Part shown: positions 3,970-32,992 of the stretch, one piece after another | Layout: each line of letters starts with the position of its first letter | Numbering within the stretch: the stretch's first letter is position 1 | Assembly: GCA_900556185.1 (NCBI GenBank) | Contig: USNN01000001.1 | Location: forward strand, 1-35,675 | Length of the DNA stretch: 35,675 nt | Source: an uncultured Eubacteriales bacterium | Lineage (GTDB): Bacteria; Bacillota; Clostridia; Christensenellales; UBA1242 | Direction: 5' to 3' | Made by a program: the position numbers and the translations under genes | Notes under the pieces: model-generated | What the model saw: the letters and a program-made list of their open reading frames with translations, nothing else | Told to the model about the DNA's origin: nothing | The model's database searches: none

Positions 3970-5403
3970 ATGCGAAAATACTTAATAATTACAGTAACCG
4001 CAGGCGAAGGTCATAACTCAATGGCAAAAGCATTGCGTGAAAAATTAGAAGAAGACAAAAATAACGTTGTTAAAGTTATAGATATATTTAAAGCATACGG
4101 CAAACCAGGTAAAGTTGGCTTTATTAATGATGGCTACTTAAATGCGTGCAAATACGCTTTGCCACTATATAACCTTGTGTTTAGAAATATGCAACTAATT
4201 GACCCGCTAGAAAAAAATAATAGTATCGCTCAAAACTGGCTAGAATATGAAACACCTCTACTTATAAACGATATTTATAGTTTTAAGCCAGACGTTATTA
4301 TCGGCACCCACTTTTATAGTGGTATTATGATAACCAACCTAAAAAAGCGATTTGTTATTCCAGCAAAATCAGTTAGTTTATTAACCGACTACACCGTGCA
4401 CCCATTCCACGAATGTGCTACTGGCATAGACTACCTTATAACTCCAACAGAAATATTACACCCTCAACTTGAGTTTAAGGGTTATAAACCTAGCCAACTT
4501 GTGCCACTAGGAATACCAGTAAGAAAAGAGTTTTCGGTAGAAATAGACAAAACCACCGCAAGAAAAATGCTTAATATAAACCCAAATATGTTTACCGTAT
4601 TTATATCTATTGGCGGTGGCGGTTTTGGTGGTAGCGATAAGATACTTAAAAAATTATTAAAAATTGATAGCCCTATTCAAATTATAGTGGTAAACGGCAA
4701 AAACAAAGAAGCCTACAAAAGAATTAATAATATAATAGAAAACACCGAAACAAACCACAAAATAATCAACTACGGCTTTGTTAATAATATAGATGTTATA
4801 ATGAGTGCTAGTGATTGCATTGTGGGAAAATGTGGTGCAACTGTATTAAATGAAGCACTAAATAAACGCAAGGTTTTAATTTTAAATGATAAACTTGCCC
4901 AACAAGAATACGATAATATGATGTATCTGTCTTCAAATAACGCGTGCATAAGAGTTAGCAAATATTTCCCAGTGGAATTAATTGTTGAATATTTATCTAA
5001 AAACCCACAAATTTTAGATAAGATTGAGCAATACATAAACAAAATACGAAGACCAAACGCATTAACTGACATTGTAAACTTTGTTTCTGGTTTAAACTCC
5101 GACCCATACCCAGAAAACAGCACCATATTAACCGAGTCTGAAATAAAAGAACTCCGTCAAGAACTAAAGAAATTAAACACACTAGAAGCCCATTCTATAA
5201 AAGAGAATGTAAAACTACAAAAACAATTAGATAAACTATTTAAAGACAAGGCTATATTAAAAGCCGAAAAAAAACAGTCTAAAGAAAACAAAGACCAACT
5301 AAAGCAATTAATGAAACAAACAAAAAGCACAATATACACCGACCCAGAATACGCTTCCGACCACACCTCATCATTGCTTGGCGTTGAAAAACTAAAAAAT
5401 TAA
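3970..5403 (+). CDS. GT28 monogalactosyl/diglucosyl-diacylglycerol synthase-like glycolipid glycosyltransferase (UgtP/MGDG-synthase family) with a coiled-coil C-terminal extension
   Basis: The N-terminus LIITVTAGEGHNSMAKAL matches the MGDG-synthase G-x-GH signature. A C-terminal GT-B half follows (GGGGFG, GKCGATVLNEAL). The last ~90 aa are Lys/Glu/Gln-rich. Confidence 0.75.
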   Translation: MRKYLIITVTAGEGHNSMAKALREKLEEDKNNVVKVIDIFKAYGKPGKVGFINDGYLNACKYALPLYNLVFRNMQLIDPLEKNNSIAQNWLEYETPLLINDIYSFKPDVIIGTHFYSGIMITNLKKRFVIPAKSVSLLTDYTVHPFHECATGIDYLITPTEILHPQLEFKGYKPSQLVPLGIPVRKEFSVEIDKTTARKMLNINPNMFTVFISIGGGGFGGSDKILKKLLKIDSPIQIIVVNGKNKEAYKRINNIIENTETNHKIINYGFVNNIDVIMSASDCIVGKCGATVLNEALNKRKVLILNDKLAQQEYDNMMYLSSNNACIRVSKYFPVELIVEYLSKNPQILDKIEQYINKIRRPNALTDIVNFVSGLNSDPYPENSTILTESEIKELRQELKKLNTLEAHSIKENVKLQKQLDKLFKDKAILKAEKKQSKENKDQLKQLMKQTKSTIYTDPEYASDHTSSLLGVEKLKN

Positions 5404-5478: not shown

Positions 5479-5922
5479 TTATATTTCTTCTTCAGATTCG
5501 TTAAGTAATTCATCGAATATTTCTAGTTCTAATTTTGCAGATTCAGGCTTATCTGATGAGTGAATAACATTTTCGGTCATTCTCATTTCCTTACCCAGCA
5601 TTTTTGGAATATCATACCTAATTGACCCAGCTTCAGGATTATTGGTTGGTCCTGCTAATTCTCTAATAACAGCAATTGCATTTTCGCCTTCTACTCTCAT
5701 TCCATAAGCCTTGTCGCCTGTTATGTATGCTTCTAGTTTTGGATAAAATTCTCGGTGTATGTGTTCATGATAGTGTCTTTTAGCACGGCTTTTATCGTAT
5801 CTAATAAAGCCTTCATCAAGTATTTCAATTCCGTTTGCTTTTAGTCTTGCTTTAACTTCGTCTATAACTCTTTGGTCGTTAGCAAATTCTGGTTTTACCA
5901 TTACATAAGATATTTGTTTCAT
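5479..5922 (-). CDS. ndk: nucleoside-diphosphate kinase
   Basis: NDK motifs are present: VMVKPE, HYxEH...FYP, GPTNP..A..GSIR, and NVIHSSD containing the active-site His. The usual form of that last motif is HGSD. Confidence 0.88.
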   Translation of the reverse strand: MKQISYVMVKPEFANDQRVIDEVKARLKANGIEILDEGFIRYDKSRAKRHYHEHIHREFYPKLEAYITGDKAYGMRVEGENAIAVIRELAGPTNNPEAGSIRYDIPKMLGKEMRMTENVIHSSDKPESAKLELEIFDELLNESEEEI

Positions 5923-22037: not shown

Positions 22038-22265
22038 TTCTCTCCTTGATACCCTTTTGTATAAAAATTATTTAACCAACAAAACCCCAAATTGTGCTTT
22101 AAGATTTATTATAGTCATTAATATTATTATAATATATCCGTGTCCAAAAAACAAGGATATTTTATTACAAAAATCTTACTCTACCAAATCTTAGACACGC
22201 CAAGAAATATTGGTTTCAACCCACAAGCAAACTCACCCAACACTAAACCATCTCACCTTTTTGTT

Positions 22266-22306
22266 AATAAAAAACCCACCCACAGGAAATCTCCCATAGG
22301 TGGTTG
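22266..22306 (-). terminator. rho-independent terminator after the 22310 gene
   Basis: On the minus strand, a CCACC...GGTGG hairpin is followed by a T6 run immediately after the stop codon. Confidence 0.6.
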
Positions 22307-22309
22307 TTT

Positions 22310-22873
22310 TTATTCTCGCTCTTCAGTGGTTGTATCTGAATTTTCTAGTTGTTTCATTTTATCTTTTATACATTCCCAGCACGCATTATACAACGCTTTC
22401 TCGGTGTACTCGCCCGTTTCCACATTCATAAAACAAGGGGTACTACTCATATTTCCAATTGCGGGCAATAATTGCACATTTGCCGAATCAGAGACACCCG
22501 TGGCGGGGTTTATTTTCTCGTTGCCAAACAACATATACTTAAGGTCAACAAGTAAAATGCTTCTGTCATCACAAACAGCATACGCCTTATAAAACTGACG
22601 CACCGCACCATAGTTTGGAACCGCCTCATTTTTAAGGTCAGACGATAATTTCCAATAGTCTTGGTTAGCGGAATTAAGGTTTTCTACACACGCATTAACA
22701 AATTTGTTCGCATTAACCGTAAAACATTCCTTATACGAATAAAGGTCGGCACACACTTCGTTAAATTCTTCCACAAACGCACGATGCCCCACTTCTTCCT
22801 TTCTTATTCTTTTCAACTCGGACTTCAAATCAAAAAAGTTCCGAACTTTGTCTTGCAATTCAAAAAACTCCAT
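22310..22873 (-). CDS. hypothetical protein, no recognisable domain (Cys-containing, soluble)
   Basis: 187-aa ORF with a ribosome-binding site (AGAGGGAAAAGTT-ATG), a perfect consensus promoter ~90 nt upstream, and its own terminator. Confidence 0.65.
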   Translation of the reverse strand: MEFFELQDKVRNFFDLKSELKRIRKEEVGHRAFVEEFNEVCADLYSYKECFTVNANKFVNACVENLNSANQDYWKLSSDLKNEAVPNYGAVRQFYKAYAVCDDRSILLVDLKYMLFGNEKINPATGVSDSANVQLLPAIGNMSSTPCFMNVETGEYTEKALYNACWECIKDKMKQLENSDTTTEERE

Positions 22874-22969
22874 AACTTTTCCCTCTTACCCGGTTAACTA
22901 TTCTCTCACTAATTTACGCCAAACAAACTATCCTAGCCTCTAGTGGCATAAATTTATATTTCTACAAAA

Positions 22970-22998
22970 ATTATACTAAACCATCCTCCTTTTGTCAA
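22970..22998 (-). promoter_or_regulatory. perfect consensus sigma-70 promoter
   Basis: On the minus strand: TTGACA (22998-22993), a 17-nt spacer, then TATAAT (22975-22970). This implies a leader of about 90 nt before the ATG at 22873. Confidence 0.75.
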
Positions 22999-23138
22999 CC
23001 CCAACATACCTGAATTACTACACCCGCACCCAAATAAAAAAACGACTTAGCTCCAATCCCAACAAGTAAAAATAATCACTTATAACACCCCACCACAAAA
23101 TAGAGTAACACTAACCACACCTTTAATATTTAGATTAT

Positions 23139-23175
23139 CACAAAAGACCGCCCATACACAAATAGGCGGTCTTTA
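23139..23175 (-). terminator. rho-independent terminator after the WYL/FtsK-gamma operon
   Basis: AAGACCGCC (23144-23152) pairs with GGCGGTCTT (23165-23173). On the minus strand a T-run follows. Confidence 0.8.
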
Positions 23176-23177
23176 TA

Positions 23178-23540
23178 TTACTCATTTTCAAATATCTTTT
23201 TGTATTCTTCGATTGTTATATACACATCTCTGCCTTCAGGCTTAAATTCAGATATAAACCCGCAAGACTCCATTTGGTCTAAAATTTCCGCTGCTCTAGC
23301 ATAACCAATCATAAACTTTTTTTGAATCATCGCCGTCCCAATTGTTTTAGACTTTATTGCAAGACTAACCACTTCTGGCATTAATGGGTCAAGGTCAGCC
23401 ACACCAAACCATTTTAGGTCTATATCTGAAAACTTTGTCGCACTTCCCGTTTTACTGGTTAATTCGTCAAGCGTTTCTTCAAACACTTTCGTTAAACGCT
23501 CTCTCCATACCGAATTTACTTGTTCATCTTTTTCACTCAT
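23178..23540 (-). CDS. small standalone FtsK-gamma (winged-helix, KOPS-reader type) domain protein
   Basis: The C-terminal 65 aa (DPLMPEVVSLAIKSKTIGTAMIQKKFMIGYARAAEILDQMESCGFIS) follow the FtsK gamma consensus (DpL...a...v....kaS.s.lQr...IGY.RAa.l.d.mE..G.v). The start lies 2 nt after the WYL gene stop. Confidence 0.8.
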   Translation of the reverse strand: MSEKDEQVNSVWRERLTKVFEETLDELTSKTGSATKFSDIDLKWFGVADLDPLMPEVVSLAIKSKTIGTAMIQKKFMIGYARAAEILDQMESCGFISEFKPEGRDVYITIEEYKKIFENE

Positions 23541-23542
23541 AA

Positions 23543-24535
23543 CTACACCCCATATTTATTACAAATTAAACTTAATTGCTCTCTAATTTTTTCTCTTGTG
23601 CTTTCAGGACTTAAAACCTCAACACTAGTGCCATATTGCAACGCCCAATAAACCAACGCCTGCTCATTCACCTTAAGCATAACTTCAATTCCCTCGCCCG
23701 CTTCTTTTATCCTAACCTTATCCCCAAACCAATCAATAACATCATTAATCGCTTTTTTGTTGTTTAATTTAATCACTGCATCCACCGATTCGCCCGCCAT
23801 CATATAAATGTGTTCGTTAATGTAAGCGTCTTGCTTAAAGTTCTCCATATTCGGTAAAGACTTAATTGGCTTAACATCATCAGTTAAAATTTCAATGTTA
23901 CTAATATTTTCGACCTTGTAGTTTGCAAGATTGTCGTATTTATCATAATTACAAACCAGATAATACTTGCCGTTGTTGTTCACCAAAAAGTATGGGTTCA
24001 TAATAAACACCTTTCCGTCAGCCCTTGGCGTAAACATTTTCATTGCATTATACTCATTATATTGAAACGCAACTTTTTTGCCTTGCTCTATTGCTCGGTC
24101 TAAAACCTCAATATTTTTAAACATTTCAGCACTTCGCTTTCTAGAGACCTCATCCACCTTGTATATGTGCTTATATTTTTTCACATCATACTTATTTCTA
24201 CCCCTAATTAGCTTTTGAATAAGAATTTTCGCTTCTCTAGACGAAATACTTTTAGACGAATAAATTGCATCAACTAAATACATCACTTCGGCATCATCAA
24301 AATCTCGCTCTGCTAAATAACAACCCTTTTTGTGTACCTTTTCAATTATATCCCCCGCATCAATCAAAGTGTCCACATTCCGAGCCACACTTTTCACGTC
24401 TGGGCTAATTCCATACAACATTTCAAGTTTAGCCACAATATCCGCATATGTTAACACATGGTTACAATCTGAATAATATTTTAAAATATCCAGCACATAC
24501 AATAAAATTATTTTCTTATCGCTTTCTGACGCCAC
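23543..24535 (-). CDS. WYL-domain transcriptional regulator (HTH-WYL-WCX architecture; BrxR/CapW/PafBC-like)
   Basis: N-terminal wHTH region. The central WYL-type beta domain reads KVAFQYNEY...NPYFLVNNNGKYYLVCNY...LANYKVENISNIEIL. A C-terminal extension follows. The start is GTG, preceded by an AAAGGAG ribosome-binding site. Confidence 0.8.
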   Translation of the reverse strand: MASESDKKIILLYVLDILKYYSDCNHVLTYADIVAKLEMLYGISPDVKSVARNVDTLIDAGDIIEKVHKKGCYLAERDFDDAEVMYLVDAIYSSKSISSREAKILIQKLIRGRNKYDVKKYKHIYKVDEVSRKRSAEMFKNIEVLDRAIEQGKKVAFQYNEYNAMKMFTPRADGKVFIMNPYFLVNNNGKYYLVCNYDKYDNLANYKVENISNIEILTDDVKPIKSLPNMENFKQDAYINEHIYMMAGESVDAVIKLNNKKAINDVIDWFGDKVRIKEAGEGIEVMLKVNEQALVYWALQYGTSVEVLSPESTREKIREQLSLICNKYGV

Positions 24536-24625
24536 TTCGCTCTCCTTTAAAGAAAATTAAAAAATTTTATAAAACATTCAAAGTTATTTATTTCAAAACA
24601 TAGCCACACACAAATTTCTCATTTG

Positions 24626-24655
24626 ATTATACCACACCCACAACACTTGTTTCAA
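24626..24655 (-). promoter_or_regulatory. extended -10 sigma-70 promoter for the WYL operon
   Basis: On the minus strand: TTGAAA (24655-24650), an 18-nt spacer, then TGgTATAAT (-10 at 24631-24626). Confidence 0.65.
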
Positions 24656-24793
24656 ATTAAATTACTTCACCGCAATATGTTATTATTGAAAGTCGCAAAC
24701 ATCAACTCATTGGATAATCGCCAATAACAAACAATTACCCAAACTTTAATGTTAACATAAAACAAACCCGCATTTTGTACCACACAACCAATA

Positions 24794-25126
24794 CTACATC
24801 TCAAAACTTTCAGACTCTTTTAATTGAGATGCTACAACTTTAAGCAGATACTTAACCCTTTTCCTTTTTAGTTTTCTGCATAAACTTTCTAGCGTCCGCC
24901 TTAGAGTGTTTACATTCACCTTATCTGCCACCATTTCTTCGTCATAATTAACCCCACAATTATTGTAGTGGTCAGAGATTCTTAAAGTTACAATTGCCCC
25001 ATCAAAATGAATATACACATACACCGAAGACGACAACCCGCTTTTCACCACATCAAACGTATACCCATTATATTGCTTAACCACCTGACTAGTAATTGCT
25101 TTAATTTTGTTATAGTCTATGCCCAT
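24794..25126 (-). CDS. hypothetical small protein
   Basis: I placed the start at MGIDYNK (25126) because AAGGAGA lies upstream. The product is 110 aa with a basic C-terminal helix (CRKLKRKRVKYLLK). No recognisable domain. Confidence 0.55.
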   Translation of the reverse strand: MGIDYNKIKAITSQVVKQYNGYTFDVVKSGLSSSVYVYIHFDGAIVTLRISDHYNNCGVNYDEEMVADKVNVNTLRRTLESLCRKLKRKRVKYLLKVVASQLKESESFEM

Positions 25127-25318
25127 AATCTTTCTCCTTACACGCATATAATAACAAAACCGAAATCCCAAAAATCGGATTTAAAATATTATTTTTAAAA
25201 AATAATTAAAAAAGTGCCAATATAATCACAACCCGCTAGGGCATCATACATTGACACTTTTAATGATAATTTTATGCTAATTGCGACATTTTGAGAGTAT
25301 TTCACAATTGAACGCTTA

Positions 25319-25819
25319 TTATAATTCTATTTCGGTAAACATCAATCCTGATAATTCTCCATCTTTTATTTGGGTATATGCATTGTTAAAAAATTTATAC
25401 GTTATATTTTCAGAATTAATGTCGCCAATTTGTAAAATTTTTTGTTCTTGGTCGTAAATTATATTACTGGTGTTAAATTCTATATAACTTCCAGTACCTG
25501 GGTATAATTTGTCTTCAGTACTAAGAGTTAAGATGGCGTCTTTTATAACACTTGGTAGTTTTAGTTTCATAATTTTTATTTTGTTACTAGTTAACTCTCC
25601 ATCAAAAGACGAAACCCTTTTTGTTTCATCATCAATATTTAGATTGAAAAATCTATCTTCTAAATACAACGAAAAACTTCCGCCACCATGCAAAGATAAC
25701 AACAATATTTCGCCATCCACATCCTTTTTGTATATCCGAACCGCTTGGTATGCTTCTAAAGTCCGCATATCTACATTTTCTTCGACTTTAAATTTGTAAT
25801 TTTTATACCTACTTTGCAT
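25319..25819 (-). CDS. hypothetical protein (possible orphan immunity-type protein)
   Basis: 166-aa ORF with a GGAG ribosome-binding site. It is acidic and soluble, with no recognisable domain. Confidence 0.55.
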   Translation of the reverse strand: MQSRYKNYKFKVEENVDMRTLEAYQAVRIYKKDVDGEILLLSLHGGGSFSLYLEDRFFNLNIDDETKRVSSFDGELTSNKIKIMKLKLPSVIKDAILTLSTEDKLYPGTGSYIEFNTSNIIYDQEQKILQIGDINSENITYKFFNNAYTQIKDGELSGLMFTEIEL

Positions 25820-26496: not shown

Positions 26497-26654
26497 TTTC
26501 TTACTCCTACACGCTTTAATTTCTTGTTTAATTACATAAAGCATACCATAGAAATAGAACTATTTCAATTCCTATTTTTAATATACCCATAAAACCTTTT
26601 TGCTTATATGTTTTTAACAAACTCCCGCCCAGCCGAAACATCTCCTTGTTTTAT

Positions 26655-26690
26655 ATTACAAAAACCACCAATATTAAAATTGATGGTTTT
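26655..26690 (-). terminator. rho-independent terminator ending the protease/toxin/immunity transcription unit
   Basis: AACCACCAAT (26663-26672) pairs with ATTGATGGTT (26679-26688), with one G-U pair. On the minus strand a T-run follows. It lies about 25 nt past the stop at 26715. Confidence 0.7.
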
Positions 26691-26714
26691 CTTTTATTAT
26701 TCTATTTATAATAT

Positions 26715-27251
26715 TTATTTTGAATTACAAGTTTCTGAATTATTAAATTTTTTAGTCATCGCATCAAAAGGCTTGCTAAAATTATACATTTTAAATAGTT
26801 TTTCGGAATAGTTGCCGACACTATCATTTACAAACTGTTTAGGATTGTTAGAAATATATTCAACTATATTATCTGTGATTATATTTTTTCTTCCATTAGA
26901 AGTAAGAATACTAAAAGAATCTTTATTTTGTTCGGCATATAAAACAATCGTCTGTTTCTTATACTCAAAAACAATTTTTTTAGGCAAATTTATTTCAGTT
27001 AGCAAACTTTTATCTATATTGTAACCAGTATAATTTTCTATCTCACCAATACACATATTTAATGCGTCTTGCTCATTTTTCCCAACTCCTACAGCAGCTC
27101 CCCACGTTTCGTCATTATCTAAAAATAATAAATTTGACTTTACAGAATAACTCGTTTTCTTAAACATATTATCTTTACTAAATTCGATAATAATTTTGTG
27201 AGGTCCTGCATTTAATTGTAAATGCTTATATCTATAATCATATTCAATCAT
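26715..27251 (-). CDS. hypothetical protein, putative cognate immunity protein
   Basis: 178-aa soluble ORF with no signal peptide. It starts 9 nt after the stop of the toxin-like gene, and a terminator follows it. Confidence 0.6.
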   Translation of the reverse strand: MIEYDYRYKHLQLNAGPHKIIIEFSKDNMFKKTSYSVKSNLLFLDNDETWGAAVGVGKNEQDALNMCIGEIENYTGYNIDKSLLTEINLPKKIVFEYKKQTIVLYAEQNKDSFSILTSNGRKNIITDNIVEYISNNPKQFVNDSVGNYSEKLFKMYNFSKPFDAMTKKFNNSETCNSK

Positions 27252-27260
27252 ATTTTTCTC

Positions 27261-28346
27261 CTAGTATAGCCCAAATGAAACTATTATTATTTCTTTTGCG
27301 GTTTTTGCCATATCAATATAAAATTTTCCCACCTTATATCTGTATACATTTGCTGTGGCACCTTCAACCAATTTTTTAGCAACTATGTTTTTGTCGACAA
27401 CTTCTTTTGCTGTTTGAGCAGCCATTCTAGAATATTCTTTAACGTTGGATGCGCCCACTTGTGCCCCGTGTTTATTGAAATGATAATTTAAACACTCTTT
27501 AGATGAATTAAATGACCCTTTACCAAATCCAACAGTCATTTTAGAACCTGCACCCATAATGGTCCCCACGGACCATCCTGTTAGACCACCCAACACAGCA
27601 CCGCCAATTAAACCTCCTACAACTGCCCAAATTTGCACTTCACCTGTTTCTTGATAAGAAATAACTCCTCCAGCAACACCGCCAGTAAGTCCACCAGCCA
27701 CAGCACCAGCTGCAATGCAGGCACCTAAACCTGCACCACATGTTGCTACAACCGCAGCAGCTACCGCTGATACCACAACGACCGCAACCACCGCTACCAC
27801 AACTTTTTTCCACAATTTCTTGAACCATCCGCAATTAGCAATCATTCCAGCATCTTGCATTTCACTTAATAAGACACATTCACCATCTACATCTAAGTAA
27901 GCATCGATTTCCCCATTTTCATTATAAAATGCAATCCCTTGAATTTCATCAATTTCTATTTTGCCGTCAGAATTAACGGTTACAGCAGATAGAGTTACAA
28001 GTCCAGTTTCAGCATCAAAACTAAAATTATATTTGACTTGCACATTCAAATTATCTTGGGAGCTCGCATCCGCAACTAAATCAAGCTCACCAAAATCGCC
28101 CAAATTAAGTGTTTGGAATCCTTCAAAGGTTGTTAAACTTCCCTCTGTAACTAATTTAGCATCTTCAAATTCTTCAAAAATACTTTCATAGTCAATTGAA
28201 TTTTGCGTAACTTCAATAGTCCTAGTTACTTCTTGATTGCTATTTGTAGTTGGCGTATCAATATAAGATGATGAGCAACATACAAACCCACACAAAAACG
28301 CTAGTACAAATGAAATAAACGCAACATGAAATTTTTTAATTTTCAT
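27261..28346 (-). CDS. exported/membrane protein: signal peptide, N-terminal beta-rich domain, Gly/Ala/Val glycine-zipper (pre-toxin-TG-like) region, C-terminal toxin-like module
   Basis: Strong ribosome-binding site (AGAGGAGGG). The N-terminal hydrophobic leader ends in CGFVCCSSS. Residues 181-267 are almost purely G/A/V with repeated GGLTG motifs. Residues 280-361 form a distinct soluble module carrying YHFNKHG. Confidence 0.75.
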   Translation of the reverse strand: MKIKKFHVAFISFVLAFLCGFVCCSSSYIDTPTTNSNQEVTRTIEVTQNSIDYESIFEEFEDAKLVTEGSLTTFEGFQTLNLGDFGELDLVADASSQDNLNVQVKYNFSFDAETGLVTLSAVTVNSDGKIEIDEIQGIAFYNENGEIDAYLDVDGECVLLSEMQDAGMIANCGWFKKLWKKVVVAVVAVVVVSAVAAAVVATCGAGLGACIAAGAVAGGLTGGVAGGVISYQETGEVQIWAVVGGLIGGAVLGGLTGWSVGTIMGAGSKMTVGFGKGSFNSSKECLNYHFNKHGAQVGASNVKEYSRMAAQTAKEVVDKNIVAKKLVEGATANVYRYKVGKFYIDMAKTAKEIIIVSFGLY

Positions 28347-28409
28347 AATTTCCCTCCTCTTTGAAAATTAATATATTTACAATCTTACATGTAGCAAAAT
28401 TGAAAATAT

Positions 28410-29129
28410 CTAGTTTGTTCCCACATACTCCATCACAACACTTATTGGGATACAGTAAGAAATACCATAAACAATATTGTTAGATTTGTCTTTTAGCCTA
28501 AATGTTGTAAGACCTATAAGTTCACCATTAGAATTTATTAAAGCACCACCACTATTACCATCTGAAATTGTTAAATCGCACTGAATAACATTTCTCACAA
28601 TATTATTGTATGAAACATTAATATGCGGTATAGATACAACTCCTTGAGTTAAACTCAATCCATAATTGCTCATATTCCCAACAGCATAAACTTTATCGCC
28701 AACTTTAAGTTTGCTGTCATCTCCGATTTTTATTGGTTTCAACACCCTGCCTGTATTATTTAATTTCAATACTGCGATATCCTGTTCGATATCATATTTT
28801 ACGACATCAACTTGCCTATAATCTTCTTCATCCACAAATCTGATAAAAATTGTTTCAAACAAATAAGTTTCAGACAGTTTGGTATATGTAATTACATGTG
28901 CATTAGTAACAATCATTCCATCTTCAGCAATAATTTCACCAGTCCCATAACTTGTTCCTATAGATTCTGTTTCCGCTTTAATTTCAATTATTGAATTTTG
29001 ACACATATTAAAAATGCTACTAGCCGTGAAGGGTCTAGTAGCTAAAAAATAGATGTTAAGCCCAAGACTTACCATACTAATAACTATTGGAACTATAATC
29101 AAAATTGCAAAAATATGTTTTCTTTTCAT
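28410..29129 (-). CDS. trypsin-like (S1/S1C) serine protease with N-terminal membrane anchor, no PDZ domain
   Basis: The catalytic triad context is present: TNAHVI (His), DIAVLKL (Asp) and GNSGGALIN (Ser). The N-terminal TM helix is IFAILIIVPIVISMVSLGLNIYFL. Confidence 0.85.
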   Translation of the reverse strand: MKRKHIFAILIIVPIVISMVSLGLNIYFLATRPFTASSIFNMCQNSIIEIKAETESIGTSYGTGEIIAEDGMIVTNAHVITYTKLSETYLFETIFIRFVDEEDYRQVDVVKYDIEQDIAVLKLNNTGRVLKPIKIGDDSKLKVGDKVYAVGNMSNYGLSLTQGVVSIPHINVSYNNIVRNVIQCDLTISDGNSGGALINSNGELIGLTTFRLKDKSNNIVYGISYCIPISVVMEYVGTN

Positions 29130-29139
29130 AATAGTTATG

Positions 29140-29167
29140 ATTATAGCACAAAAATTTAAGAAGTCAA
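29140..29167 (-). promoter_or_regulatory. extended -10 promoter placed only ~10 nt upstream of the protease ATG
   Basis: On the minus strand: TTGACT (29167-29162), a 16-nt spacer, then TGcTATAAT (-10 at 29145-29140). Only cataactatt separates the -10 element from the ATG at 29129, and there is no Shine-Dalgarno sequence. Confidence 0.55.
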
Positions 29168-29857
29168 CTAAATTTTAAATATTTATTTTCGCATAGTTCC
29201 AAATAAATTTTGTATTATCAATAGTCTAAAATTATAAAATTTTAACAAACTTAAGAACTTGTATTTTAACCATTTTGCAGATGTGTTTACATCTCCTACT
29301 ATATATTGCTTTCCAAATAATTAACTTTCTTGTTGGTTTTTATTGCGTATCCAATTTCAGATTTTGTGCTACGGCAAAGCGTTATTTATCACCTTATACT
29401 TCCAAACCAATATTATCAGCCTTACCTCTAACATCTGTTTTTACGACCCCAAAAGCATCACTTGAAGTTATTTTTAACCAAATCTTGGACCTTCATTTTG
29501 ATAGTATAAATTCATATCTATATTATAACTATCAGCCAAATATATTTGCCATTCATTAGAAAAATCTTTTTCTTTTTGGTCTACAAACACCATAAAAGAA
29601 TTTTTACCAACGCAAAAAAAATTCTTTCTTTTCGATACTTGTCATCAAGATTTATAAATAATGTTCCATTACTCGACTTATCAAAATCGACACCCAATTC
29701 CGTTAAATTAGCATTAATTTTAGGTCCAACAAGCCTTATAAAATTATGTATATTATTTAAAGATATTTTTTGTTCTACCTTACAAACTCCTTAAGTGGTT
29801 TTTAAGTTAAAATTACTACTCTGAAGCCACTCCTTATCCTGCAATAAAATTAACTAT

Positions 29858-30461: not shown

Positions 30462-30552
30462 TGGCGGAGAGTTCGGGATTCGAACCCGAGCGGCAGTTTC
30501 CCACCCTAAGGCCTTAGCAGGGCCTCCTCTTCGGCCTCTTGAGTAACTCTCC
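30462..30552 (-). tRNA. tRNA-Ser (anticodon GCU), class II with long variable arm, CCA encoded
   Basis: Folded by hand from the reverse complement GGAGAGT-TA-CTC...GAG-G-AGGCC-CTGCTAA-GGCCT-(19-nt variable arm)-TCGGG-TTCGAAT-CCCGA-ACTCTCC-G-CCA. The acceptor stem (7 bp) and the anticodon and T stems (5 bp each) all pair; the D stem is the 3-bp CTC/GAG. Confidence 0.9.
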
Positions 30553-30751: not shown

Positions 30752-31099
30752 TTAGTCCAATAAAAAACTTATTGGCAAAACCATAACCGTGCCCTTAGCG
30801 TCGCTTTTAAAATTGGCTATAGCGTAAATTTCTTTAACTATTGGGTATGCTAGTTCTTCTTTTACCACTAGTAGCACCATTTCCTTTTCGGGAGCAATTT
30901 CCATACCAAATAACCGTTTTTTACTAACTGTTTCGCCCCGACCGTTCACAATCATAGCACCTTTCCCACCTGCATTTGTGGCACTCTTAACCACTTCGTA
31001 AGCGTATCCCTTTTTAACGATAGCCACCACAAGTTTATGTTGTTGTTCTTTTATTTCGTCATTAAAAATTAAGTCGTTTGGTGTTGTTTCTTTTTCCAT
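30752..31099 (-). CDS. P-II-like (GlnB-fold) small signalling protein
   Basis: 115 aa. The beta-alpha-beta pattern (KLVVAIVKKGYAYEVVKSATNAGGKGAMIVNGRG...KEMVLLVV) is typical of P-II family proteins found next to DUF1538 genes. Confidence 0.7.
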   Translation of the reverse strand: MEKETTPNDLIFNDEIKEQQHKLVVAIVKKGYAYEVVKSATNAGGKGAMIVNGRGETVSKKRLFGMEIAPEKEMVLLVVKEELAYPIVKEIYAIANFKSDAKGTVMVLPISFLLD

Positions 31100-31108
31100 A
31101 ACTCCCTC

Positions 31109-31474
31109 CTAAATAAATAAACCCTTAGACCCCATATATCCGTCTACATCCAAGGTAAACCCAAGCCCATTACCAGGTTCGGCAAAATTAAATTCGGCAT
31201 TAAGTGCAACAAGCAAGTTGTCTGCGTCTTCTTTTCTTGCACACGCAAACACAAGCACATTTTTAATAGTTTGAATACCAAGTAACTCCAAACTCTTATT
31301 TTTACTAATACCTTCGCCAACGGCACTAATAACCACTCTGCCACCAAGTTCACCTATTCGCCTTATTAAGTTCTTTTCAAATTCGGGCTTAACAATAATT
31401 ACAATAAACTTTAACTCGTCTATTTCGTCTAGTGTAAAAACTTTTTTTACACTGCCATTATCTTTAACTTTCAT
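31109..31474 (-). CDS. P-II-like (GlnB-fold) small protein, divergent paralogue
   Basis: 121 aa with FIVIIVKPEFEKNLIRRIGELGGRVVISAVGEG...VLVFACARKEDAD. Its start abuts the DUF1538 stop with no spacer. Confidence 0.6.
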   Translation of the reverse strand: MKVKDNGSVKKVFTLDEIDELKFIVIIVKPEFEKNLIRRIGELGGRVVISAVGEGISKNKSLELLGIQTIKNVLVFACARKEDADNLLVALNAEFNFAEPGNGLGFTLDVDGYMGSKGLFI

Positions 31475-32992
31475 TTATCTTTCCCCCAACACAAATTGGT
31501 CGTGCACCTTTTGTAGTTTAGATATATTAGAATATTCATCTTCAGTTCTAGACAAACTAACCAAAATTTTAGCGGTCTTCCTCGCTTCTCTAGATAGTAA
31601 CACTCTATACGCAATACCAAGTATTTCCATAACTAAAATTGGAGTCATACACAAAATGGCTATCATTCCAAAGCCACCCAAACTAGACCCGCTTAGTCCC
31701 ATAATTATTGGGAACAGAAATGCGACTGTCATAGTGCCAGTTGCAACGCCCGAACTATCAAAAGCAATGGCAACAAATAGGTTTGGCGTGAACGCCATAA
31801 GCAAAAACGCAAGCCCATAAATAATGCCAACATACCACCAAATAGAAATTCCAAATCTAACTTTTAAAACGCAAAGCACCATAGACGCCATCACCGAAAC
31901 AGCAATAGCTACCACAACAACCCCGCTTTTTATGTTTCGGTTTGTGGTTTCTTCAATTTGGTTTGCTAAAATTCGGATAGTTGGTTCACTAAACACAATT
32001 AAAAACCCAAGTAATGCACAAATTAAAATAATTATGCCAGTGTTATTAATATTTCTCAAAATTCCACCTAAACATTCACCCATACCAGAAAGCCCATAGT
32101 TAATGCCAAACAAAAATAGATAGAACCCAACAAAAGTAATAAGCGAGCCAACAATAAGTTTCTTCTTTTCTTGCTTAGATATTTTAATGAAAATGGCTTC
32201 AAATATAAAGAATACAATAACCAGTGGAACAATTGAAAAACTTACATCTTTAAGCGTTTCTAGCCATAGTGGAGTGCTAGATGTTTCCACCACTTCGCCC
32301 CCGTTAGACCTACCAGTAATTATAGTTAAAATAAGAACGGCGATAATAGGACCAACGGACGACATTGCAATAAAGCCAAAATTGTCTTCATCTTTTCGCT
32401 TCGCACCCGAGGTTATACCAGCAATACCAACACCCAAGGCTAGTAAAAATGGCGACGTAACAACGCCAGTGGTGTTCCCACCCGTATCTAAACTCATACT
32501 AAGCGCATCGCTTCCAGCAAATATTGCAAGAATAAAGCATACCGCATACGAAATTAAAAGAGTTAATTTTAAACTAAATTTGGTTGCCACTCTAATTAGT
32601 GCAAGCGATATATACACACCCACACCAACACCAGCAACAATTAAAAACACGAACTTGTTAAAATTGAACCCTGCCCCAATAACTTCACCTGCAAACACTT
32701 GCATATCTGGCTCGGCTATGGTTGAAAAAATTCCAAACACAAGTCCAAATATTATATAAACAAAAAAGTGATTATTAGACTGCACCGAACCGCCGACAAA
32801 CTCACCCATCGGTTCAATACTTTTTTCAATACCAATTAAAAATATTACTTGCCCAACAATTAAAATTCCGCACCCAATAAAAAAGTTGACAAAAGTATTT
32901 GTGTCTATTTTCTGCACAAATAAGTGCATAACAAGCACAAACACAATGATTGGTAAAAGAGAAAACAAAATTGTTTTAAATTTTTTAATCAT
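31475..32992 (-). CDS. DUF1538-family polytopic membrane protein (two-repeat putative transporter)
   Basis: 505 aa with about 12 TM helices in two similar halves. The genomic pairing with P-II-like genes is characteristic of this family. Confidence 0.7.
   Translation of the reverse strand: MIKKFKTILFSLLPIIVFVLVMHLFVQKIDTNTFVNFFIGCGILIVGQVIFLIGIEKSIEPMGEFVGGSVQSNNHFFVYIIFGLVFGIFSTIAEPDMQVFAGEVIGAGFNFNKFVFLIVAGVGVGVYISLALIRVATKFSLKLTLLISYAVCFILAIFAGSDALSMSLDTGGNTTGVVTSPFLLALGVGIAGITSGAKRKDEDNFGFIAMSSVGPIIAVLILTIITGRSNGGEVVETSSTPLWLETLKDVSFSIVPLVIVFFIFEAIFIKISKQEKKKLIVGSLITFVGFYLFLFGINYGLSGMGECLGGILRNINNTGIIILICALLGFLIVFSEPTIRILANQIEETTNRNIKSGVVVVAIAVSVMASMVLCVLKVRFGISIWWYVGIIYGLAFLLMAFTPNLFVAIAFDSSGVATGTMTVAFLFPIIMGLSGSSLGGFGMIAILCMTPILVMEILGIAYRVLLSREARKTAKILVSLSRTEDEYSNISKLQKVHDQFVLGER

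Follow-up and report, generated by a model that had tools for sequence, protein, structure and literature searches.

What does the DNA-reading domain of a translocase do when it is encoded without the motor, directly behind a transcription regulator? The question is raised by contig USNN01000001.1 of an uncultured Eubacteriales bacterium, analysed here as a stretch of 35,675 nucleotides (the window), in which the gene of a 330-residue WYL-domain regulator (the WYL protein) is followed by that of a 120-residue protein bearing an FtsK gamma domain (the gamma protein). Many systems against phages or DNA damage are switched by WYL regulators, which are described as single-protein sensors. We found that the WYL-gamma pairing is recurrent in related bacteria and not a one-off. 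The two genes probably belong to a larger cassette that would be governed from a predicted operator.

A WYL regulator coupled to a motorless gamma protein

The WYL protein starts at a GTG codon preceded by AAAGGAGAG. It contains a WYL domain (Pfam PF13280, residues 141-216, E=5.5e-9, 36.3 bits against a gathering cutoff of 21.8) and a WCX domain (PF25583, residues 251-321, E=1.3e-7, 32.3 bits, gathering cutoff 23.9), and it matches the PADLOC WYL profile at E=1.9e-27. The N-terminal helix-turn-helix (HTH) was missed by Pfam. The AlphaFold2 model of the protein (predicted local distance difference test, pLDDT, 83) was aligned by Foldseek over its full length (~340 columns, probability 1.00) to DriD, PafBC, CapW and BrxR, with DriD (8tp8) as the top match (E=4e-13, template modelling score 0.54, 343 aligned columns). 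An N-terminal winged HTH (wHTH) is predicted to be present because of these full-length alignments. The model thus places the protein in the wHTH-WYL-WCX class of DriD, CapW, BrxR and PafBC, in agreement with the HTH-WYL-WCX regulator that a first-pass annotation had called from the letters alone. At least 1776 proteins are homologous to it at E<=1e-3, and its gene has a ratio of nonsynonymous to synonymous substitution rates (dN/dS) of 0.056.

The same annotation had read the C-terminal half of the 120-residue protein as an FtsK gamma domain without a translocase motor. This assignment was confirmed by profile search, in which the gamma domain, like the WYL domain, scored above its gathering threshold. 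The gamma winged helix occupies residues 49-108 (Pfam FtsK_gamma, PF09397, E=5.7e-16, 58.4 bits, cutoff 30.6) and matches the solved gamma domain of E. coli (PDB 2J5P) at E=3e-8. Pfam gave no match to the FtsK_SpoIIIE motor (PF01580) in the protein, and the NCBIfam FtsK equivalog reached 32 bits where the cutoff is 1566. Therefore, and in view of its length of 120 residues, the protein is not a translocase.

Upstream of the winged helix lies a conserved helical region (~residues 4-28), and the N-terminal 45 residues are conserved in orthologues (S-WRERLE-VFEETLD). The orthologues share 46-51% identity, N-terminal region included, and the gamma gene has a dN/dS of 0.11, which indicates purifying selection. 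In related Clostridia, full-length FtsK has a gamma domain 45-51% identical to that of the window protein. A word-index homologue search with the 120-residue protein alone retrieved one protein, 97% identical. The DNA-reading helix is kept in orthologues (RASRIIDQLE versus RAARIIDQME).

In E. coli FtsK, the residues R1300, E1303 and E1306 serve recognition of the FtsK-orienting polar sequences (KOPS), and an R1300A mutant is defective in it (PMC2680272). The equivalent positions are E/D/E in the window protein and in the 97%-identical P0001 and R/D/E in full-length FtsK of related Clostridia; the arginine is also retained in the orthologues at loci L001, L002, L016 and L020. The KOPS-reading role that had been attributed to the domain is thus not established for the window copy, which has Glu at the R1300-equivalent position.

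Both genes appear to be expressed as one unit. The junction reads ...AAA TAT GGG GTG TAG tt ATG AGT, so 2 nucleotides separate the WYL stop from the gamma ATG, as the first reading of the locus had stated in proposing translational coupling, and a Shine-Dalgarno-like run, GGGGTG, lies 5 nucleotides upstream of this ATG. The spacing is kept in L002/L003 and L081-84. Directly 3' of the gamma stop, a terminator hairpin closes the unit; it folds at -21.3 kcal/mol (z = -5.6), a stability reached by 0 of 200 shuffled sequences. The WYL gene has its own extended -10 promoter, as had been claimed, with 11 of 12 consensus matches plus the upstream TG. The promoter scan covered positions 22200-25400, and in this range a further promoter at 22998..22970 matched the consensus at 12 of 12 positions.

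Recurrence of the WYL-gamma pairing

A pair confined to this genome, with no conserved neighbourhood, would have suggested a decayed FtsK/SpoIIIE fragment, according to the first-pass annotation. However, other species have the pair too, and its neighbours are conserved there. A scan with a single genome for each GTDB species gave 161 WYL loci, and 80 of the 161 were analysed. All open reading frames (ORFs) in the 80 loci were subjected to an iterated search for gamma, followed by Pfam FtsK_gamma at E<=0.01. A gamma ORF was detected in 22 loci, and all 22 passed the Pfam profile. It lies on the WYL strand in 21 of the 22, mostly immediately upstream or downstream of WYL. One of the 22 gamma ORFs includes a motor domain, and the other 21 lack it. 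The WYL identities involved range from 72% down to ~36%. For comparison, the surroundings of 74 unrelated gamma genes, 546 kb in all, served as a control and contained no extra gamma ORF.

The pairing was also seen from the side of gamma. Three short metagenome gamma orthologues (L086-88) each have an adjoining WYL gene, and the remaining 71 metagenome gamma matches are mostly full-length FtsK. Among the short gamma orphans sampled, the closest (P0001, P0275, P0277 and P0283) each adjoin a member of this WYL family. Another orphan, P0286, pairs with an FtsK/Mrr_cat nuclease gene. P0299 and P0289 were rejected as orphans and excluded from the co-occurrence count, as they proved to be ftsK genes, split or truncated, in their native place next to recA. 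Among 2.9 million IMG/VR contigs, we found no relative of the WYL protein and five weak matches to gamma, confined to the gamma domain.

Orphan gammas are abundant and diverse: 85 of the best 150 cluster representatives have at most 350 residues, most with two tandem gamma domains, and many natural gamma orphans carry two to four repeats. The protein library (P0122-P0271, P0273, P0297) also holds fusions of gamma to MarR/TrmB HTH and to an Mrr_cat nuclease (P0297), and at L165 (3237-4667) a gamma gene adjoins an FtsK/Mrr_cat nuclease gene.

A predicted operator and a third gene

A comparison of the upstream regions of orthologous cassettes revealed a palindrome, AAATCC-N8-GGATTT, which is perfect in the window (minus strand AAATCCGATTTTTGGGATTT) and is the predicted operator of the WYL protein. 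The window contains one exact copy and five matches at up to two mismatches, against 2.5 expected by chance. Exact copies are present in 19 of the 80 loci, nearly always 36-130 bp upstream of WYL or at the start of the operon, and every exact copy is joined to an extended -10 of the TGnTATAAT type. With up to two mismatches, the 700 bp that precede the WYL start contain 32 sites, spread over 26 of the 80 loci, whereas ~7 would be expected as estimated from the overall density (102 sites in 850 kb).

The 21 non-identical sites in register have the consensus AAATCC.TTTTTTtGGATTT-(5-6 nt)-TG.TAT.AT, in which the palindrome takes the place of a -35 element ahead of the extended -10, and the T-rich spacer is oriented with the operon. 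The palindrome lies directly before WYL in L024, L029, L033-35 and L039, and before the first gene of the WYL and/or gamma operon in L001-3, L005-7, L020, L029 and L163. It is also found in the gamma-less loci L004-7 and L033-35. All 19 WYL proteins whose operator has at most one mismatch share the motif K[ST][IV]A in what is predicted to be the recognition helix, and most loci without an operator differ from it in the WYL wHTH. Since the operator occurs in gamma-less loci too and covaries with this helix, the comparison points to WYL, not gamma, as the likely binder of the palindrome.

In the window, the first gene after the operator is c13, encoding a conserved 110-residue protein. Its homologues adjoin WYL in L001, L005, L015, L016, L081, L085 and L160-162; it has no relatives in Pfam or PDB, and its dN/dS against L081 is 0.37. 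The earlier view of WYL plus gamma as the functional unit therefore holds for the pairing itself, but the unit is larger, as c13 precedes WYL and carries the operator. The promoters at 24626-24655, 22970-22998 and 29140-29167, the last outside our promoter scan, had been named as targets of the pair. No operator-like site at up to three mismatches was found near any of them, so for two of these three candidates membership in the regulon is not supported. A 45-residue ORF at 24667-24804 was considered as a remnant of the small membrane protein encoded between c13 and WYL in relatives and was rejected, as BLASTP gave no similarity.

The first genes after the operator in relatives often encode hydrophobic peptides of 21-38 residues or an 80-residue membrane protein. 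These small products are candidate toxins or division inhibitors in the WYL regulon.

Sites for gamma were sought as well. In a scan for motifs resembling KOPS or SpoIIIE recognition sequences, GGGNAGGG occurred once in the window and GAGAAGGG never, 35 kb being too short for skewed octamers. G/T-rich GTGTGG(T) words cluster in the intergenic regions on both sides of WYL-gamma. Of the six GTGTGGT copies in the 35.7 kb, three fall there, and one of these overlaps the WYL -10 region. They were rejected as gamma sites, as orthologous cassettes do not share this clustering.

Genomic surroundings of the cassette

The neighbours of the WYL gene vary among loci and include clear defence systems. BrxA/B/C lie beside a WYL relative in L010 and a HEC-05/GmrSD-like nuclease in L057; McrBC-like genes are found at L037 and IetA-like ATPases in further WYL loci. 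An operon of HKD/SNF2 helicase, DUF4391, HEPN and Type III methyltransferase genes, with a serine recombinase, is present in L085 and L160. The order in the closest relatives is WYL-gamma, an oppositely oriented serine recombinase, HKD/SNF2, DUF4391, HEPN_Cthe2314 and two Type III-like methyltransferases, and from this gene content the set may be a recombinase-switched restriction-type system. The general statement in the first-pass annotation that WYL regulators are often embedded in defence islands is thus true of these relatives. Stand-alone cassettes among housekeeping genes, as in the window, occur in L163 and L168.

The window has 33.5% G+C and a strong skew, with the minus strand as the G-rich side, and its nearest relatives are uncultured gut Clostridia and metagenome-assembled genomes of Christensenellales type. 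The WYL-gamma pair lies inside a run of ORFans (22.3-30.2 kb) bounded by a UDP-sugar/polysaccharide operon (14.7-22.0 kb) and tRNA-Ser(GCU). Downstream of the pair, a 187-residue ORF without assignment is followed by the polysaccharide operon. Beside the tRNA gene, neither an integrase nor a GC or other compositional break was seen in the ORFan block, and profile searches of the block gave no capsid, terminase, replication or integrase genes.

L081 is a contig of the same species (91-97% DNA identity) with the order c13-WYL-gamma-187-residue ORF as in the window. Positions 26528-27212 and 27274-29463 of the window are absent from it and form a strain-variable insert. The trypsin-like peptidase of this insert also matches the protease parts of PADLOC RT-Protease_XI, PDC-M35A and Avs1b, and judged by these matches the insert may be a small protease-based defence cassette. 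At 30752-32992, a DUF1538 membrane protein gene is followed by two P-II-like genes (115 and 121 residues), a conserved trio shared with L081. A second HTH_11-WYL-WCX regulator gene, just past a GH95 glycosidase gene, is located at L081 1-360 and would fall barely outside the right end of the window.

Table 1 Coordinates of the features discussed, in the window unless a locus is named.
Feature	Position	Strand	Basis or remark
Palindrome AAATCC-N8-GGATTT, 20 bp, predicted WYL operator	25163..25182	.	sequence comparison
Extended -10 element TGtTATTAT of the operator promoter	25148..25156	-	read from sequence
c13, conserved 110-aa protein, first gene after the operator	25126..24794	-	homologues next to WYL in relatives
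Sigma-70-type proximal promoter of the WYL gene, TTGAAA-18-TGgTATAAT	24655..24626	-	11/12 matches + upstream TG
Predicted wHTH-WYL-WCX transcription regulator, 330 aa, GTG start	24535..23543	-	Pfam + AlphaFold2/Foldseek
Orphan FtsK-gamma protein, 120 aa, ATG start	23540..23178	-	Pfam FtsK_gamma, PDB 2J5P
Intrinsic terminator closing the WYL-gamma unit	23139..23177	-	hairpin + UUUUGUG
GTGTGG(T) words	23114-23120, 24604-24609, 24631-24637, 24779-24785	-	window word scan
178-aa ORF	26715-27251		in strain-variable insert vs L081
361-aa ORF	27261-28346		in strain-variable insert vs L081
Trypsin-like serine peptidase	28410-29129		in strain-variable insert; Pfam Trypsin_2 6.7e-25
tRNA-Ser(GCU)	30462-30552	-	edge of ORFan run
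Operator-controlled small first genes in relatives	L006 ~1518-1590; L024 ~5208-5270; L029 ~5601-5663; L001 883-1122; L163 4310-4411		
Recombinase + SNF2/Type III regions in relatives	L085 11595-20993; L160 5479-10285; L002 8158-12432		

Comparison with known WYL and gamma systems

Regulators of the DriD, CapW and BrxR type are dimers, and PafBC combines two WYL proteins. BrxR-type regulators are located beside BREX (bacteriophage exclusion) and other defence islands (PMC9122601, PMC9122589). BrxR and CapW act as repressors and are encoded next to defence systems, CapW, DriD and PafBC sense single-stranded DNA (ssDNA), and DriD activates the cell-division inhibitor didA. For CapW, ssDNA binding is reported to de-repress the immune operon (PMC11662680).

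The window protein shares with BrxR the wHTH-WYL-WCX build (full-length Foldseek matches to 7qfz/7t8k at E~1e-6), the location of its relatives directly upstream of BREX (L010), Type III-like restriction-modification/SNF2, GmrSD-like and McrBC-like genes, and a palindromic predicted operator at its own operon promoter. It differs from BrxR in that the match is structural alone, with 10-13% identity, in that the window copy has no adjoining recognised defence system, and in having an FtsK-gamma partner. A profile of 29 WYL-family members retrieved no BrxR chain from the PDB at E<=1, and judged by sequence the protein would fall outside the BrxR family in the strict sense.

DriD, which acts in the SOS-independent damage response of Caulobacter (8tp8), is the best structural match of the WYL model and is also matched weakly in sequence over WYL-WCX. 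Further points of likeness are the position of the operator in the -35 region and the small membrane proteins that belong to the regulon in relatives and recall didA. In contrast, the identity is 16-18%, DriD is an activator with a chromosomal regulon, and we know of no gamma partner for it. Unlike for DriD, repression is suggested here because extended -10 promoters should work without an activator. CapW, the repressor of CBASS (cyclic-oligonucleotide-based anti-phage signalling system; 7tb6, 9c5g), has the same three-domain fold and is a repressor beside an immune operon, but identity to it is ~11-13%, and no CBASS genes are present at the window locus. The mode of action proposed below is modelled on CapW.

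The gamma protein has the winged helix of FtsK/SpoIIIE gamma (PF09397; 2J5P, 2VE9) and the high identity to the clostridial domain given above. Unlike FtsK/SpoIIIE, it is an orphan without alpha/beta motor, membrane anchor or linker, has its own N-terminal helix, and its genomic partner is a WYL regulator instead of the native ftsK-recA locus (L167, L169). Gamma domains outside a translocase have been reported from the Bacillus phages Sam46 and Sam112 as standalone FtsK_gamma genes and a gamma-small terminase fusion, with the role stated to be unknown (PMC8190038). Those are phage genes, whereas the window cassette is chromosomal and WYL-linked and was not detected among the IMG/VR contigs. 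The TLC-phi satellite, a mobile element, encodes a small protein, XafT, that activates XerD and so takes on one of the tasks of FtsK gamma (PMC6744903, PMC9226527). Neither Xer genes nor a dif-like site were identified at the window locus. XafT is reportedly not homologous to gamma and is a precedent for gamma function in trans by analogy only. The ShosTA paper was rejected as a precedent, as FtsK gamma appears there only in a reference about XerD.

In the WYL-regulator papers retrieved by full-text search, those on BrxR, CapW and DriD included, FtsK is unmentioned except in a BREX survey, which discusses HerA/FtsK translocases and not the gamma domain. The first-pass annotation had not recognised the pair as a described module, and we likewise found no description of it in the literature searched. 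Gamma thus appears as a new recurrent partner of WYL, and the palindrome as a newly predicted operator.

Proposed function and alternative explanations

We lean, with slightly more than even confidence, towards reading the locus as an autoregulated three-gene WYL cassette (c13, WYL and gamma) of the BrxR/CapW/DriD type with a DNA-binding partner. By sequence comparison, the WYL protein would most likely bind the palindrome and, when bound, would keep the extended -10 promoter shut as long as its WYL domain is free of ligand. Binding should repress because the palindrome replaces the -35 element of this promoter. If CapW, DriD and PafBC are a guide, this ligand might be ssDNA arising when DNA is damaged or a phage infection is restricted. 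The gamma protein would be produced jointly with the regulator and would most likely work on DNA as an additional DNA-binding co-factor, either alongside the WYL switch or downstream of it. Such a partner role is favoured because the coupling implies joint production with the regulator, because gamma tracks WYL and the operator and not any one defence system, and because both genes in the window also have an operator-less promoter. One KOPS is bound by three gamma monomers, and covalent trimers bind better (PMC3384302); a protein with a single gamma domain may need its N-terminal helix to oligomerise.

Several observations weigh against the autoregulated cassette. In the window, the operator lies upstream of c13 and WYL-gamma has a strong promoter without it, so autoregulation of WYL and gamma would need read-through over the 258-bp spacer between c13 and WYL, in which no terminator was predicted. 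As for repression, the best structural match, DriD, is an activator, and an operator at the -35 position is also typical of class II or 'sigma adaptation' activators. No gamma gene was found in 58 of the 80 WYL loci within the flanks examined, and gamma is therefore an optional partner of this WYL family. With Glu at the R1300-equivalent position, DNA reading by gamma may be altered or lost in the window species, and neither the window words nor the orthologous cassettes yielded a conserved candidate gamma-binding site. The AlphaFold2 model of gamma is poor (pLDDT 51), and its secondary structure alone was used, with caution. Finally, no recognised defence system adjoining the pair in the window was found by Pfam, PADLOC or other profile scans.

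Gamma might instead be the output of the switch, a reading that is attractive but that we regard as doubtful. Free gamma would then compete with host FtsK/SpoIIIE for polar guide motifs or engage Xer-type recombinases, leading to stalled translocation and division, or to recombination, as a damage or infection checkpoint like the DriD-controlled division inhibitors, and the tiny hydrophobic peptides of the regulon would act on the membrane or the divisome. The closeness to FtsK gamma, the kept DNA-reading helix of the orthologues and the ability of isolated E. coli gamma to activate XerCD-dif alone (PMC3130261) are consistent with this, as are the small first genes behind the operator in relatives, the activation of didA by the structural neighbour DriD and the cassettes without a nearby defence system (window, L163/L168). 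However, the operator-less WYL-gamma promoter in the window may make gamma constitutive. The XerD-contact stretch of E. coli, TEKRKA, is not conserved in the window protein. Gamma of the window species also has Glu where R1300A renders the E. coli protein KOPS-defective (PMC2680272), and a single gamma binds KOPS weakly, three being needed per site (PMC3384302). It is unlikely, in our view, that gamma is a DNA-targeting accessory of adjoining defence systems, telling self from non-self via polar motifs or docking nucleases or helicases, with the window copy as a remnant after loss or replacement of its system. The gamma-resolvase-HKD/SNF2-DUF4391-HEPN-Type III methyltransferase order in the closest relatives, the ties of gamma to Mrr_cat nucleases (P0297, L165) and the IetA-like ATPases, GmrSD-like nuclease and McrBC-like genes at other WYL-gamma loci speak for it, but the type of adjoining system varies while gamma tracks WYL and the operator, and the cassettes of the window, L163 and L168 have no defence genes nearby. 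Moreover, the window gamma is under purifying selection without such a system.

That the cassette regulates a prophage, a satellite or an integrative element, as a repressor with a DNA-binding or packaging accessory, and is not a host regulator appears very unlikely. Phage gamma proteins do exist (PHROG matches to E=1e-8), some standalone or fused to a small terminase (PMC8190038), the block adjoins tRNA-Ser, and a serine recombinase flanks the pair in relatives. Yet the IMG/VR contigs gave no WYL relative and five weak gamma-domain matches, the window block lacks integrase, capsid, terminase and replication genes as well as a compositional break, and it is present in both strains compared. 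A chance neighbour of WYL, derived from a decaying or duplicated C-terminal fragment of ftsK/spoIIIE, is largely refuted and deserves almost no weight. The similarity to FtsK gamma of the same lineage is indeed high, and where ftsK is truly split or truncated in its native place beside recA (L167, L169), short gamma ORFs do result. But such ORFs, when aligned, carry the end of the motor in place of the conserved N-terminal region, and no motor remnants are seen near gamma in the window (ORF list, Pfam). The gamma ORF is intact in several species, its 2-nucleotide coupling to WYL is kept, and 22 of 80 WYL loci have it against none in the control. Purifying selection and N-terminal conservation among orthologues thus argue that gamma is not a decayed FtsK fragment.

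Meaning for WYL switches and orphan gamma proteins

A broad extrapolation, which we put forward as speculative and improbable, is that orphan FtsK-gamma proteins are widespread, unrecognised trans-acting readers of guide motifs. Here such a reader would be WYL-controlled together with tiny membrane peptides, as a damage or infection checkpoint on FtsK/SpoIIIE pumping or Xer recombination, or it would mark host versus foreign DNA for neighbouring restriction.

A recurrent FtsK-gamma partner would add a second DNA-reading component to WYL switches. Conversely, the pairing would offer a first functional handle on orphan gamma-domain proteins. The predicted operator, fused to an extended -10 element, makes the WYL-gamma system directly testable and its regulon predictable in hundreds of uncultured gut Clostridia.

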